Source: an uncultured Candidatus Bathyarchaeia archaeon (GTDB lineage Archaea > Thermoproteota > Bathyarchaeia > RBG-16-48-13 > CAYPFQ01). From it: DNA of 49,475 bases. The DNA is taken from contig CAYPFQ010000001.1 of the NCBI GenBank assembly GCA_964410135.1, forward strand, positions 92,373 through 141,847, written 5' to 3'. Positions 12,912 to 24,862 of this stretch are shown here, one piece after another (the first letter of the stretch is position 1; every line of letters starts with the position of its first letter). Both the position numbers and the translations under genes were made by a program. The notes under the pieces are model-generated. The model ran no database searches, was not told where the DNA came from, and was given only the letters and a program-made list of their open reading frames with translations.

Positions 12912-13790
12912 CTACCTCTTCACCTGCTTCACTGCATAGTCTATGATCATTCCTGGGATATCTTTCCCAGTCGCTGTGTACGTGCCCTTAAACTCAATCG
13001 TATGGTTAACCTCGTGTACCAGCAAGCCCTTAGGGCTCTCCATCATGTCGACGCCGAGTACGCCACCGCCTACGGCTGCTGCTGCCTTTAGGGCTATGTC
13101 TTCAAGCTCCTTGGTGACCTTGCATTGTTCTGCATATCCGCCGCGTGCTAGGTTGGTGCGCCATTCGCCAGGAGGCGAAACCCTGTATATTGCCGCCACT
13201 ACCTCATCTCCTATTACTGTGGCCCTGATGTCTCTGGGCGGCCTTGCGACCATTTGCTGCATATAGTAGACCTGATAGAGAGGGTGCATGAACTCTCTAT
13301 CCTCTATTATGGCTTCAGCTGTCTCTTTGTCTTTCAAAGGAGCTAACAATCGTCCCCAGCTTCCGACCACAGGCTTGAGGATCGCCGGGTATCCAAGCTC
13401 ATCAAGTGCCTCGAATACTGCTTCTGGAGTGAACGCAAGAATCGTCTTAGGAGTAGGAATCTTCGCCTTAGTCAACGCCAAAGTAGAAAGTAGCTTATTT
13501 CCACAAACCTGCATGACCCTGTGAGAGTTAATTACAGTGACACCCTGATTCTCCAAGGCAGCTGCTAAATGAAGCCCTCTAAAATAGCTAACGCAGCGCT
13601 GAAGCGCAACCTTCTCCACATTCAACTGAGGCTTAGAACTAGTGAGATCAATCTTAGCTGTTCTAGCGTCGATCAGATTCATCTGTACACGTTTTTTCTT
13701 AGCGGCTTGAATTAGGATCTTTTCTTCCCAGCGGATCTGGTCAAAAAGCAGACTAATTTTAGTGGTAATTCTACTCCCCCCAGTCCTCAC
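12912..13790 (-). CDS. lysX: LysX/ArgX ATP-grasp ligase
   Basis: DQIRWEEK, KPVVGSWGR, WRTNLARGG, EVNHTIEFKG; directly downstream of lysW. Start codon uncertain. Confidence 0.92.
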   Translation of the reverse strand: MRTGGSRITTKISLLFDQIRWEEKILIQAAKKKRVQMNLIDARTAKIDLTSSKPQLNVEKVALQRCVSYFRGLHLAAALENQGVTVINSHRVMQVCGNKLLSTLALTKAKIPTPKTILAFTPEAVFEALDELGYPAILKPVVGSWGRLLAPLKDKETAEAIIEDREFMHPLYQVYYMQQMVARPPRDIRATVIGDEVVAAIYRVSPPGEWRTNLARGGYAEQCKVTKELEDIALKAAAAVGGGVLGVDMMESPKGLLVHEVNHTIEFKGTYTATGKDIPGMIIDYAVKQVKR

Positions 13791-13944
13791 CCTCGACTTG
13801 GACTATCTTCAATATTGCTTTCCCTGCATTTATTTCAGCTACCTCAAGCTCCAAGCCGCAGTCGGGACAACTGACAATCTCTCCGATAACCACATTGTCG
13901 AGGACATCGAATTCCGCTGCGCACTCAGGACAGGTTGCCTTCAA
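13771..13944 (-). CDS. lysW: Amino-group carrier protein LysW (57 aa)
   Basis: Manual translation: MKATCPECAAEFDVLDNVVIGEIVSCPDCGLELEVAEINAGKAILKIVQVEGEDWGE. Two CPxC motifs, terminal EDWGE, TTG start with GAGGAG RBS. Missed by the ORF track. Confidence 0.97.
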   Translation of the reverse strand: MKATCPECAAEFDVLDNVVIGEIVSCPDCGLELEVAEINAGKAILKIVQVEGEDWGE

Positions 13945-14042
13945 TCTAATCTCCTCATCAGCATCTCCAAATCCAAACCAGCGGGGCGAAGACTATGACG
14001 ATCCCAAAGTCTCCTGGGCTTTCTCTTAGTCTGCATCCGCAT
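13941..14042 (-). CDS. Putative Arg/Lys-rich upstream ORF/leader peptide (33 aa)
   Basis: MRMQTKRKPRRLWDRHSLRPAGLDLEMLMRRLD*; its TGA overlaps the lysW TTG (TTGA). Translation unproven. Confidence 0.35.
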   Translation of the reverse strand: MRMQTKRKPRRLWDRHSLRPAGLDLEMLMRRLD

Positions 14043-14059
14043 CGTTCCCAATCATCTTC

Positions 14060-14072
14060 GAAAAAATTTTTC
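14060..14072. promoter_or_regulatory. Palindrome GAAAAA-A-TTTTTC, candidate operator
   Basis: Perfect 13-bp palindrome in the lysW/aconitase divergent intergenic region; low complexity. Confidence 0.3.
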
Positions 14073-14103
14073 AGGATTGAGGATACGTGTAAAATAAAGG
14101 CTA

Positions 14104-14117
14104 CTTATAACTCTTTC
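14104..14117 (-). promoter_or_regulatory. Candidate BRE-TATA for the lys operon
   Basis: Minus strand GAAAGAG-TTATAAG. TTATAA is palindromic, so it could also serve the plus strand. Confidence 0.4.
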
Positions 14118-14282
14118 GAACATGGAAAATCTCAAGAAACAGCGATAAACAAAAAGTTCGGCAGCCCCCTCAAATAGACTCAGAACTATTAAGCCTTCCA
14201 CGAGATTCTCATAAAAATGTCAGCAGAAACAATAAATTTGGAATCGCGGAATCTAATGTAACTCGAAATTGAAGGGTTCCCA

Positions 14283-15530
14283 ATGAATTTAACAATCGCG
14301 GAAAAAATCCTCAGCCGCACATCTGGGAAAAAAGCTAGTGCAGGCGAACTCGTAGTAGCCAAAATAGACGCTGCCATGACCCACGACGGAAACGCCAAAC
14401 TAACCATCAAAGCATTTCAAGAAATGGGCGGACGCAAAGTTTGGGATCCAAATAGGATTGCAATTGTAATCGACCATGTGGCTCCAAGCGCCTCTGAAAC
14501 AATCTCCGTAGTACATCAGACAATGCGCGAATTTGCAGCTGTACAAAAAATCAGAAACTTTTACGATATAGGCTCAGGAGTCTGCCATCAGCTCATGCCT
14601 GAAATGGGATTCGTCAACACAGGCTCGCTGGTCGTAGGCACAGACTCGCATACATGTACCTATGGGGCCCTAGGCGCATTCGCCACAGGCATAGGCTCAA
14701 CTGAGATGGCGGCCGTATTCATATCAGGCAAACTCTGGTTCAAAGTGCCAGAAACAATCAAACTGAATATAACCGGCAACCTCAAGCCAAGTGTAACTCC
14801 AAAAGACCTCATTCTCCACATTATAGGCAAGATTAAAGCTGACGGCGCAACCTACAAAGCCCTCGAATTCACAGGGCCGACCATAACTGAAATGAGTATA
14901 GACGGCCGCATGACTCTTTGTAATATGGCGGTTGAAATGGGAGCCAAAACCGGTATAATCGCGCCAGATCAGAAAACAACACGCTTTCTGAAAGGAAGAG
15001 TCAAATCTCCCATTAAGCCCCTGAAAAGCGACCCCCACGCCGAATATGAGGAGATAATCGAGTTTGAAGTGGGAGGACTAGAGCCTCAAGTAGCATGCCC
15101 TCACTTTGTTGACAATGTTAAACCAGTATCCGACGTAAAGGGCATCGAAATCGATCAGGTTTTCCTAGGATCCTGCACCAATGGTAGGCTGGAAGATCTG
15201 AGAGCGGCCGCGAAAATCCTTAAACGAAACAAAATCAGCCCCAACGTAAGAATGATAGTTATACCCGCCTCCAAGGAAGTCTATAATGCTGCGTTAAAAG
15301 AGGGATTGATTGAAATATTCATAAAATCAGGCTGCCTTGTCTGTAACCCTGGATGCGGACCATGCGCAGGCGCACATGAAGGCATACTCGCATCAGGTGA
15401 AATAGCGCTCTCAACCTCAAACCGCAACTTTCCAGGTCGGATGGGCTCAACTGAAGCCCAAATCTATCTAGTCTCACCAATGACCGCAGCCGTCTCCGCG
15501 TTGAACGGAAAAATAACAAGCCCGAAGTGA
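14283..15530 (+). CDS. hacA: Homoaconitase/3-isopropylmalate dehydratase family large subunit (probable homoaconitase)
   Basis: VIDHVAP, DSHTCTYGA, GSCTNGR, CNPGCGPC. Adjacent to lys genes; a separate leuC lies in the leu operon. Confidence 0.7.
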   Translation: MNLTIAEKILSRTSGKKASAGELVVAKIDAAMTHDGNAKLTIKAFQEMGGRKVWDPNRIAIVIDHVAPSASETISVVHQTMREFAAVQKIRNFYDIGSGVCHQLMPEMGFVNTGSLVVGTDSHTCTYGALGAFATGIGSTEMAAVFISGKLWFKVPETIKLNITGNLKPSVTPKDLILHIIGKIKADGATYKALEFTGPTITEMSIDGRMTLCNMAVEMGAKTGIIAPDQKTTRFLKGRVKSPIKPLKSDPHAEYEEIIEFEVGGLEPQVACPHFVDNVKPVSDVKGIEIDQVFLGSCTNGRLEDLRAAAKILKRNKISPNVRMIVIPASKEVYNAALKEGLIEIFIKSGCLVCNPGCGPCAGAHEGILASGEIALSTSNRNFPGRMGSTEAQIYLVSPMTAAVSALNGKITSPK

Positions 15531-17121: not shown

Positions 17122-17526
17122 CTAACTATAGTGCTTTAGCACTATCATCGTGTTTGTATTTGTTACGCCCGATATTTCGCGTATTCTGTCAACGGTTTCA
17201 TTGATTTTTTCGATGGTAGGTGCGGAGAGGACGACGGCGATGTCGTGTTGGCCTGTGATTTCGTAGACTGTTTCTATGTTTTCAAGTCTGGCGATTTGTT
17301 TCGCGACTTCAGGGGTGGGTGCGGCTGAAACAAGAGTGAGAGCTTTTGCACCTTGGGCTGTGCCGAGCTGAATGGTGAATTTGCGTATAATGCCTTCTTT
17401 GACCAAGTTTTGGATCCGCTTTCTTACAGCGCCCTCGGATAGTGCTACCTGTTTGGCGATGGTGGTGTAGGGTTGGCTTGAGTCCTGTTTGAGGATTTCG
17501 ATTATTTTTTTGTCGATTTCGTCCAT
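17122..17526 (-). CDS. Lrp/AsnC family regulator (LysM-like)
   Basis: MDEIDKKIIEIL...LSEGAVRKRIQNL HTH plus C-terminal ligand domain (ITGQHDI). Confidence 0.9.
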   Translation of the reverse strand: MDEIDKKIIEILKQDSSQPYTTIAKQVALSEGAVRKRIQNLVKEGIIRKFTIQLGTAQGAKALTLVSAAPTPEVAKQIARLENIETVYEITGQHDIAVVLSAPTIEKINETVDRIREISGVTNTNTMIVLKHYS

Positions 17527-23505: not shown

Positions 23506-24729
23506 TTATTTTGCCGCTTTCTTTTTCTTCATTTGGAGTTGGCGTGCTACCCTGCTCGGGAGCCCCCATAAATCGACGAAGCCGCTGGAGGACGACTCGT
23601 CGAATGTGGATTTAATGTCGTATCTCGCTAAATTATAATCGTAAAGCGAGTAGGGTGACGACCTGCCGACTACCGTGGCTCTGCCCTTATAGAGTTTCAG
23701 TTTGACTTTTCCCTCGACTCTTTCTTGTGTAGCATTGATGAACGCCTCTAGATCTTCACGTAACGGATCCATCCACAATCCAGTATAGGCTAGGAATGTC
23801 CATTGCTGGTCAACATGAGATTTGAACGTGAGTTCGTGGCGAGTTAGCACAGTTTTCTCAAGATCTTTATGTGCTTCGAGGATGCAAGTAGCTGCGGGGC
23901 ACTCGTAGATTTCTCTTGATTTTATGCCGACAAGCCGGTCTTCCATGTGGTCAATGCGACCGATTCCATGCTTTCCAGCCATCATGTTAAGCGTCTGTAT
24001 GAGCTTTGCGCCGCTCATCAATTTGCCTTCTAATGCAACTGGCACCCCGTCTTTAAATTCGATCGCCACATATTCTGGTTTAGCTGGAGCTTTTTCAGGG
24101 GCAATTGTCCACTCAAAAGCATCTTCTGGCGGCTCTTTTTCTGGAAAGTCTAGAGGACCGCATTCTACCGACCGTCCCCAGAGGTTTTGATCGATGCTGT
24201 AAGGATTGCGTTTAACAGGGATTGGTATCCCGTATTTTTTCGCGTAGGCGATGACCTTGTCTCTTGACCAGCTCCAGTCCCGCATTGGAGCTATGATTTT
24301 GAGGTGGGGAGCCAATGCCCTGATGGTCACCTCGAATCTGACTTGGTCGTTTCCCTTCCCAGTACAACCGTGCGCAACAGTACTCGCGCCCTCCTTTTTT
24401 GCTACTTCAACTAATTTGGAGGCGATAAGCGGTCTCGATAAGGCGCTACTAATCGGATATTTTTCTTCGTAGAGTGCGTTCGCCATAATTGCTGGAAAAA
24501 CATAGTTTTTGACAAACTCATCTCTCAAATCTAGCGAGTAATGTTTTAATACACCCAAATGCTCCGCTTTCTCAGCTATCTTACTCAAATCCTCATTTTG
24601 ACCTAACTCGGCGGTGAGAGTTACCACTCCATACTTTTCCTGAAGTAGTTTGATCGCTACTGTAGTATCTACCCCGCCAGAATAAGCTAGTACAATTTTC
24701 TCCATCTTACTCATCCTTGCTTGAATCAT
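23506..24729 (-). CDS. argG: Argininosuccinate synthase
   Basis: LAYSGGVDT, HGCTGKGNDQVRF, SIDQNLWGRS, KSREIYECP. True start may be a few codons downstream. Confidence 0.97.
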   Translation of the reverse strand: MIQARMSKMEKIVLAYSGGVDTTVAIKLLQEKYGVVTLTAELGQNEDLSKIAEKAEHLGVLKHYSLDLRDEFVKNYVFPAIMANALYEEKYPISSALSRPLIASKLVEVAKKEGASTVAHGCTGKGNDQVRFEVTIRALAPHLKIIAPMRDWSWSRDKVIAYAKKYGIPIPVKRNPYSIDQNLWGRSVECGPLDFPEKEPPEDAFEWTIAPEKAPAKPEYVAIEFKDGVPVALEGKLMSGAKLIQTLNMMAGKHGIGRIDHMEDRLVGIKSREIYECPAATCILEAHKDLEKTVLTRHELTFKSHVDQQWTFLAYTGLWMDPLREDLEAFINATQERVEGKVKLKLYKGRATVVGRSSPYSLYDYNLARYDIKSTFDESSSSGFVDLWGLPSRVARQLQMKKKKAAK

Positions 24730-24862
24730 TAATTTATGCTCATCACATAGTAGGCTCTTCTAATTTTTAAAACCATTTTATTAAGGCATCTGCGACCTAG
24801 TTGAAAAAGAATATTAAGAAATGCCTCAGTTATCCCTTCGTTAGAACATAGGGTGTTCACGT

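Follow-up and report, generated by a model that had tools for sequence, protein, structure and literature searches.

We report a short upstream open reading frame (uORF) in the leader of lysW, the first enzyme-pathway gene of an amino acid biosynthesis operon (lysW-lysX-argC/lysY-lysZ-lysJ) in a Bathyarchaeia metagenome-assembled genome of ~1.0 Mb. The stretch of DNA analyzed, hereafter the window, comprises 49,475 nucleotides of contig CAYPFQ010000001.1; position 1 is its first letter, and all coordinates given for the leader and lysW refer to the minus strand. Within the family to which this genome belongs, the uORF, the overlap of its stop codon with the lysW start codon, a basic N-terminal motif, a promoter motif, and a complementarity between the predicted 5' end of the transcript and the lysW start region are all conserved. 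On the basis of this anatomy, we propose that the uORF is a translated leader cistron (i.e., the first frame of the lysW-lysX-lysY-lysZ-lysJ mRNA in one Bathyarchaeia family) that gates lysW by translational coupling, a reading to which we assign a probability of about one-half.

The uORF (13941-14042) extends from ATG 14042 to TGA 13943-13941 (33 codons plus TGA), and two further in-frame starts are available (TTG 14051 and ATG 14036). A sequence-only reading of the window had described an Arg/Lys-rich ORF of this length with a KRKPRR run, and the ORF listing and its translation (MRMQTKRKPRRLWDRHSLRPAGLDLEMLMRRLD; 8 Arg and 2 Lys among the 33 codons) agree with that description. The run (AAG AGA AAG CCC AGG AGA, 14027-14010) is part of a cluster of K, R, K, P, R, R, L, and W codons at 14004-14027, and the Arg and Lys codons of the uORF are commonly used ones. 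As that reading had also pointed out, the stop overlaps the start of lysW (13771-13944; 57 aa; TTG start at 13944-13942) as TTGA (13944-13941). The overlap by itself is no evidence of function, because it is forced by the Met-Lys start of lysW (NTG AAR). Taken in the window alone, the uORF is likewise unremarkable (its frame is open in 13% of dinucleotide shuffles; P = 0.13), and DNA contigs of close strains show no variants inside it. A Shine-Dalgarno (SD)-like sequence of lysW, GAGGAG (13951-13956), lies within the 3' end of the uORF, and all four sequences of the family sample have an SD (GAGGAG, GAGGGA, or GGAGGA) 6 to 8 nt before the lysW start.

This sample consists of the window, L041, the near-identical pair L042/L043, and L044, which is the same as G001, plus one 30-nt fragment. 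L041 to L044 come from metagenomes of the Joint Genome Institute scanned with a LysX alignment, and G001 is the one other family genome in the genome collection; the LysX relatives P0002 to P0006 (Logan/ENA; 70 to 83% identical) were left out. LysX identity to the window is 80% for L041, 71% for L042/L043, and 69% for L044, and identities across the family sequences range from 69 to 85%. We count approximately three independent lineages, because the LysX proteins of L042 and L044 are 85% identical.

L041, L042/L043, and L044/G001 all carry the uORF at the corresponding position and in the same frame, each with an NTGA on the lysW start (TTGA in the window, and GTGA, ATGA, and ATGA in the relatives). 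The relatives' uORFs have 37 codons each and begin with MLEQRRRPRRLWDTSS in L041, MIEERKKPRRLWYGTM in L042, and MIDERKRIVKVWHGTM in L044. The ATG is conserved together with a GTGA 9 to 12 nt upstream of it. Of the six possible frames, that of the uORF is the sole one free of stops in all four sequences. Between lineages, the tails of the uORFs share 24 to 40% nucleotide identity, which is the random level, yet they remain open; the joint shuffle probability of open tails in three independent lineages is ~0.28 x 0.12 x 0.17 = 0.006. The ATG-to-TGA lengths (99 nt in the window and 111 nt in each of the other three) differ by a net 12 nt, a multiple of three, and the G+C content of the uORF is coding-like (0.37 to 0.49, versus 0.21 to 0.36 in the remaining spacer). 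By these comparisons, the conservation of the uORF across the family exceeds that expected by chance.

The basic cluster near the N terminus of the peptide reads KRKPRRLW in the window, RRRPRRLW in L041, RKKPRRLW in L042, and RKRIVKVW in L044, such that 4 to 6 Arg/Lys residues fall among codons 5 to 11 in every sequence; the run in L041 (RRRPRR) contains no Lys codons. In the three sequences that carry PRRLW, the corresponding codons vary solely synonymously (CCC/CCT, AGG/CGT/AGA, and CTT/TTA). Between the motif and the stop codon lie 20 residues in the window and 25 in the others. We propose that the (R/K)3-P-R-R-L-W N-terminus is selected at the peptide level. A scan of the whole genome for (R/K)3-P-(R/K)2-[LIVM]-W yielded no second ORF with this motif.

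The candidate promoter of the leader-lysW transcript consists of CGAAAGAG, which resembles a transcription factor B recognition element (BRE), followed by the TATA box TTATAAG (14104-14118). The pair sits 160 to 167 nt upstream of lysW, and the family alignments show an invariant TTATAAG and a conserved A-rich BRE in four of four sequences; the claim of the sequence-only reading that a BRE-TATA ~160 nt before lysW (here 14118-14104) implies a long leader is supported. Moreover, the 100 nt upstream of lysW in the window lack any TATA-like or AT-rich stretch, and a long leader is therefore needed there. Relative to the uORF ATG, the BRE/TATA lies 59 to 67 nt upstream, an ordinary distance given that TATA-like words peak genome-wide at 40 to 65 nt upstream of ATGs. 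With the usual archaeal spacing between the TATA box and the transcription start (i.e., TATA center plus ~26 nt), we infer a start at ~14081. There is also an AT-rich box 24 to 30 nt upstream of the uORF ATG (spacing counted by hand), and the uORF is predicted to lie inside the transcript whichever of the two boxes is used.

At the predicted transcription start lies a nine-nucleotide box, B1 (14073-14081), which complements the lysW start region (B2; TAGATTGAAGG, 13938-13948) and a second site near the uORF start. Its sequence is CTCAATCCT in the window and TTCACTCT in L041, and L042 and L044 share TTCATTCT; in four of four sequences B1 is the best complement, within the whole leader, of the 12-nt segment surrounding the lysW start codon. 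An unguided RNAalifold prediction recovered the long-range helix of B1 with the lysW start, and this helix was the principal feature of the consensus. One of its pairs varies on both sides (A-U, C-G, and U-A with UUG, GUG, and AUG starts, respectively): the sole variable base in the B1 core gives CAU, CAC, or CAA as the start codon reads AUG, GUG, or UUG. This pair involves the first base of the lysW start codon, and both of its sides have changed in two lineages. In register, 80.6% of the alignment cells of the helix are paired, versus 17 to 50% when the partner is slid by 1 to 3 columns.

The second B1 site is GATTGGG (14053-14047) in the window, the AAUGAUU of the uORF itself in L042 and L044, and AAGUGAUUG in L041. 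In the window, GATTGGG is the best predicted partner of B1 (-8.3 kcal/mol) and is also paired with it in the minimum-free-energy (MFE) fold. It is contained in ATGATTGGG (14047-14055), the local version of a conserved NTGATTG element found in all four sequences. In L042 and L044 this element supplies the uORF start in frame; the window and L041 have it out of frame (as ATG 14055 and as a GTG, respectively), and their uORF start therefore appears to have shifted downstream. The ATG at 14055 in the window opens an out-of-frame ORF of just 9 codons (MIGNDADAD).

The anatomy supports translational coupling: next to the NTGA overlap, it shows a start region that could be masked and, in two lineages, a weak lysW start codon (TTG or GTG), which are traits that characterize termination-reinitiation and RNA unfolding (PMC6728339; PMC12548453). 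In the mechanism that we envisage, transcription would begin ~25 nt downstream of the BRE/TATA, near 14081, and would give a leader of ~135 nt. Ribosomes would initiate on the uORF, translate its 33 to 37 codons, and stop at the TGA, two bases of which also belong to the lysW start codon; lysW would then be translated via termination-reinitiation, via melting of an inhibitory helix, or via both. This helix would form between the first 6 to 11 nt of the mRNA (i.e., B1) and the lysW start region and would mask the start from free ribosomes. As B1 may alternatively pair near the uORF start, a single 5' element could mask either start site. The basic N-terminus probably modulates ribosome transit, and it may also render the gate responsive to arginine or lysine. 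We hold only tentatively the stronger form of this idea, namely, a ribosome-based sensor of basic amino acids in which the (R/K)3-PRRLW peptide or its codons would make transit depend on arginine, lysine, or ornithine, with B1 toggling between masking of the uORF and masking of lysW and thereby setting LysW output; such a sensor is possible and, in our estimation, doubtful.

Several observations weigh against the gated-cistron proposal. The approximately three independent lineages are all metagenome derived. G001 has IVKVW instead of PRRLW and so lacks the Pro and one Arg, and the ratio of nonsynonymous to synonymous changes (pN/pS) across the 14 aligned N-terminal codons is 0.44 to 1.2, which makes this test a weak one overall. 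The sequence-only reading had looked to relatives for conservation of the ORF and of the K/R run; this was found within the family but not in the other Bathyarchaeia families searched, and the uORF is also absent from the more distant LysX loci searched. With only four sequences, covariation in the helix does not reach significance against the shuffle control, in which 52 of 500 shuffles score at least as high. The helix probability computed with ViennaRNA is ~0.9 in L042 and L044 versus 0.01 to 0.12 in the window and L041, where the helix has 6 bp (0.01 to 0.04 in the window itself). Its formation needs a transcription start at or upstream of 14081, and it is lost with a start 3 nt further downstream; the AT-rich box close to the uORF could instead give a leaderless uORF mRNA without B1. 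The SD of lysW is strong, such that independent initiation might occur. Finally, the transcript start, the translation of the uORF, its coupling to lysW, and any sensing are all predictions.

LysW matches Pfam PF21344 (52.9 bits versus a cut-off of 27), and lysX downstream of it matches TIGR02144 (328.6 bits); argC/lysY, a kinase gene, and argD/lysJ follow on the minus strand. The best model for the kinase is the bifunctional [LysW]-aminoadipate/[LysW]-glutamate kinase NF010662 (282 bits), and LysX is present in a single copy in the genome, alongside an ATP-grasp paralogue that is 31% identical. Because of the bifunctional kinase match and the single LysX, the operon plausibly makes both lysine and arginine. 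The sole canonical start of lysX is a GTG at 13790 within the last lysW codons, which gives a 20-nt overlap; a noncanonical start is also possible. Homoaconitase genes are transcribed divergently from 14283, and the spacer between the two gene sets measures 338 bp. The argG gene, at the head of the arginine genes (24729-24800 region), has a TATA-like box ~45 nt before its ATG, and its promoter showed no comparable leader ORF; the leader design thus appears specific to lysW in this genome.

A gene for an Lrp/AsnC-type regulator lies at 17122-17526, ~3 kb from the lysW leader. Directly upstream of the BRE there are conserved GTTTC(T/A)(T/A)GA and TTCGAAA-like elements (14112-14142 in the window; ~2620-2665 in L042), which in L042 form a 9-bp inverted repeat (TTTCAAGAA...TTCTTGAAA); these elements are a candidate operator for the regulator. 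Between B1 and the uORF, the window also contains a perfect 6+1+6 palindrome, GAAAAA-T-TTTTTC (14060-14072; no strand assigned), which is not palindromic in the three relatives. Archaeal sites for Lrp/feast-famine regulatory proteins such as CCGAAA[AAT/ATT]TTTCGG share its form (PMC2715240).

The explanation closest to the sequence-only reading is a hungry-codon attenuator, in which scarcity of charged tRNA-Arg or tRNA-Lys would stall ribosomes on the K/R run and thereby increase expression of lysWXYZJ, either by antitermination or by unmasking of the lysW ribosome-binding site (RBS), as in the polycysteine small ORFs (sORFs) of mycobacteria. Bacteria are known to use codon runs for translational attenuation (bioRxiv 10.1101/834739), the 4 to 6 Arg/Lys codons at codons 5 to 11 are kept in all four sequences, and both amino acids are plausibly products of the operon. 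However, in the family alignments neither a T-tract nor a terminator is conserved from the run to lysW; runs of at least five T residues are confined to individual sequences (T6 at 14061-14066 in the window and a T5 in L041), and RNAalifold gave no terminator/antiterminator-like alternative in the consensus fold. A search of 13700-14400 with Rfam covariance models, which include that of the lysine riboswitch, returned just three chance-level matches (E values of 1.2 to 8.6, far below gathering scores). The small hairpin CCCAG-GAGACT-TTGGG (14003-14018), which had been noted over the run, does form in the MFE fold of the window but is missing from the consensus structure of the family. Unmasking of the RBS fares no better in three of the four sequences: duplexes between the stall zone and the lysW RBS are no better than those of shuffles in the window, L042, and L044 (P = 0.37 to 0.74), and L041 alone shows such pairing, between its P-R-R codons and the lysW SD (-16.2 kcal/mol; P = 0.008 versus shuffles). 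The sole conserved helix (i.e., that of B1 with the lysW start) lies beyond the footprint of a ribosome at codons 5 to 11, and stalling there is therefore expected to lower lysW translation; a lowered ribosome flow into lysW would be the wrong direction for a starvation sensor. The run codons are also common ones, those of L041 include no Lys, and codon sensing leaves the conserved P, L, and W unexplained. Bacterial-style attenuation, and with it the suggestion that stalling regulates the operon in this manner, is thus not supported, and we regard the hungry-codon attenuator as an unlikely explanation of the locus.

The other alternatives differ in whether the peptide itself matters. The fungal arginine attenuator peptide is a ligand-sensing arrest peptide, and the uORF might follow its logic with a chemistry like that of SpeFL or TnaC: arginine, lysine, or ornithine in the exit tunnel, together with the nascent (R/K)3-PRRLW, would stall the ribosome on or close to the stop of the uORF, where it would cover the lysW SD and start and switch the operon off. 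The retention of PRRLW through synonymous codons, the overlap of the stop with the lysW start (a paused ribosome would therefore occlude both SD and start), and a direction of regulation that is sensible for a biosynthetic operon all agree with this scheme, and leader peptides that sense small molecules by stalling at a stop codon are established in bacteria (PMC12360218). Nevertheless, the C-terminal 20 to 25 residues, which would occupy the peptidyl-transferase center and the upper tunnel, are unconserved (with tail identities at the random level noted above), the spacing from motif to stop varies, and G001 deviates in the motif itself; we consider arrest quite unlikely. Peptide-level retention of the N-terminus would also be expected if the uORF were an ordinary first gene of the operon, encoding a small basic protein made 1:1 with LysW that acts in trans and could bind the acidic LysW or its enzymes. 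LysW is indeed very acidic and the motif very basic, and NTGA-coupled pairs often encode subunits of a complex (PMC10666635). We nonetheless judge such a protein distinctly improbable: more than half of the peptide drifts to random-level identity and varies in length, behavior seldom seen in proteins that fold or bind a partner; the four uORF peptides matched no family in Pfam (E values up to 1) or NCBIfam (E values up to 10); a profile search of 1.84 billion protein representatives gave no small homologue; and the uORF is limited to one family although LysW is widespread. The sole match in the profile search, to 17 residues of a 2,515-aa protein, was treated as spurious. The least unlikely of the alternatives to a translated, coupled cistron is that nothing is translated and that the region is a conserved 5' untranslated region or DNA control region (e.g., promoter-proximal elements, Lrp/LysM operators, or an A-rich unstructured stretch), with the open frame as a by-product. 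The genetic code alone turns a purine-rich stretch into K, R, and E codons here, the terminal TGA is imposed by the start of lysW, pN/pS is not far below 1 overall, and an Lrp-type regulator gene is nearby, with palindromic TTCGAA and GAAAAA-T-TTTTTC elements present. By contrast, a by-product does not account for a frame that stays open through unconstrained tails in three independent lineages, for the net length difference in a multiple of three between the window and the others, for purely synonymous change in PRRLW, for coding-like G+C content, or for the conserved ATG with its upstream GTGA.

Frames ahead of lysW were also compared beyond the four main sequences. A short, low-depth contig covering 13830-13943 from a relative that is ~80% alike has a GTG as the lysW start. 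In the lysW frame, no stop seems to interrupt the 30 nt ahead of this GTG except a TGA that directly abuts it (TGAGTG); in the frame that a GTGA overlap would require, stops apparently occur 5 and 8 codons upstream. In another Bathyarchaeia family (f2), three genomes of one genus (L026 to L028) keep a different small ORF, MKAKLLKMA(K/N)EVEKRSV..., 70 to 80 nt upstream of lysW, whose end falls at the lysW start or shortly beyond it. Because this ORF overlaps a conserved CTTAAAAATGGC box resembling a TATA box, it may not be transcribed; in one of the Bathyarchaeia families that lack the uORF, this TATA-like sequence is located ~55 nt upstream of lysW. A 35-codon ORF with PRFGKLW before lysW in the class-level relative G032 was rejected because its ATG directly follows a TATA-like box and because it is missing from the family mate G037 and from L095, which has a very similar LysW. 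Likewise, a W-R-D-K string before lysW in G005 and G018 is the SD GGAGGGA read in frame.

The control of amino acid operons in archaea is known almost solely through DNA-binding regulators such as LysM. In the literature searched, we found reports of archaeal uORFs from ribosome profiling and no characterized archaeal leader-peptide switch. The locus described here offers a compact, testable case of ~180 nt, with a leader ORF, its overlap with lysW, and a 5' box in which one base tracks the AUG, GUG, or UUG start. If the coupling is true, it shows how a carrier-protein gene with a weak start is driven in an uncultured and globally abundant sediment lineage. If dependence on arginine or lysine is also true, ribosome-mediated metabolite sensing would extend to Archaea without a transcription terminator; the sensor reading, if true, would amount to a cis-acting leader-peptide switch operating purely at the translation level in Archaea.

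Among known systems, trpL, hisL, and thrL are the classical leader-peptide attenuators, and a leader-peptide attenuator was reportedly described by Tsubouchi and colleagues (in J Biol Chem, 2005) for the alpha-aminoadipate lysine cluster of Thermus thermophilus. The lysW leader resembles these in having a short ORF with a run of end-product codons before a biosynthetic operon, which in Thermus belongs to the same LysW pathway. Unlike them, it has no terminator or terminator/antiterminator alternative, its ORF overlaps the first structural gene, its conserved residues include P, L, and W, and its host is an archaeon; to our knowledge, archaea lack hairpin-dependent termination. The same operon is controlled by the Lrp-type regulator LysM in Sulfolobus (lysWXJK; PMC3597687), and in the window an Lrp/AsnC gene lies 3 kb off and semipalindromes abut the BRE. 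However, the Sulfolobus lysW leader is ~9 nt long, with an upstream activator site at -50 to -65 and no leader ORF described, whereas the leader here is predicted to be long and to carry a uORF.

Also similar in arrangement are the leaderless polycysteine sORFs of mycobacteria (bioRxiv 10.1101/834739), which are unannotated first cistrons with a cognate codon run and which control the translation of the next gene via RNA that masks its RBS, much as we propose for the lysW gate. In the mycobacterial case, the stalled ribosome covers the masking strand, whereas B1 lies upstream of the uORF, beyond a stalled ribosome. Arrest peptides (the fungal peptide, SpeFL, and TnaC; PMC12360218) share with the uORF a small size, a motif kept at the peptide level, a connection with arginine- or ornithine-related metabolism, and a stop codon placed where a pause would matter. 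They differ in that here the residues near the stop are unconserved and the distance from motif to stop is variable.

A further precedent for the proposed gate is translational coupling itself. Coupling through NTGA overlaps has been documented in archaea (PMC6728339), and in bacteria the RNA-unfolding model is an established account of coupling (reviewed in PMC12548453). Unlike normal coupled pairs, the upstream partner here is a leader ORF of 33 to 37 codons with an unconserved tail, and the putative masking partner is the very 5' end of the mRNA, ~110 to 150 nt away. As in the coupled pairs of Haloferax volcanii and Escherichia coli (PMC6728339 and PMC10666635), the uORF and lysW are codirectional ORFs that share an NTGA, the downstream start could be masked by RNA pairing, and lysW has weak start codons in two lineages.

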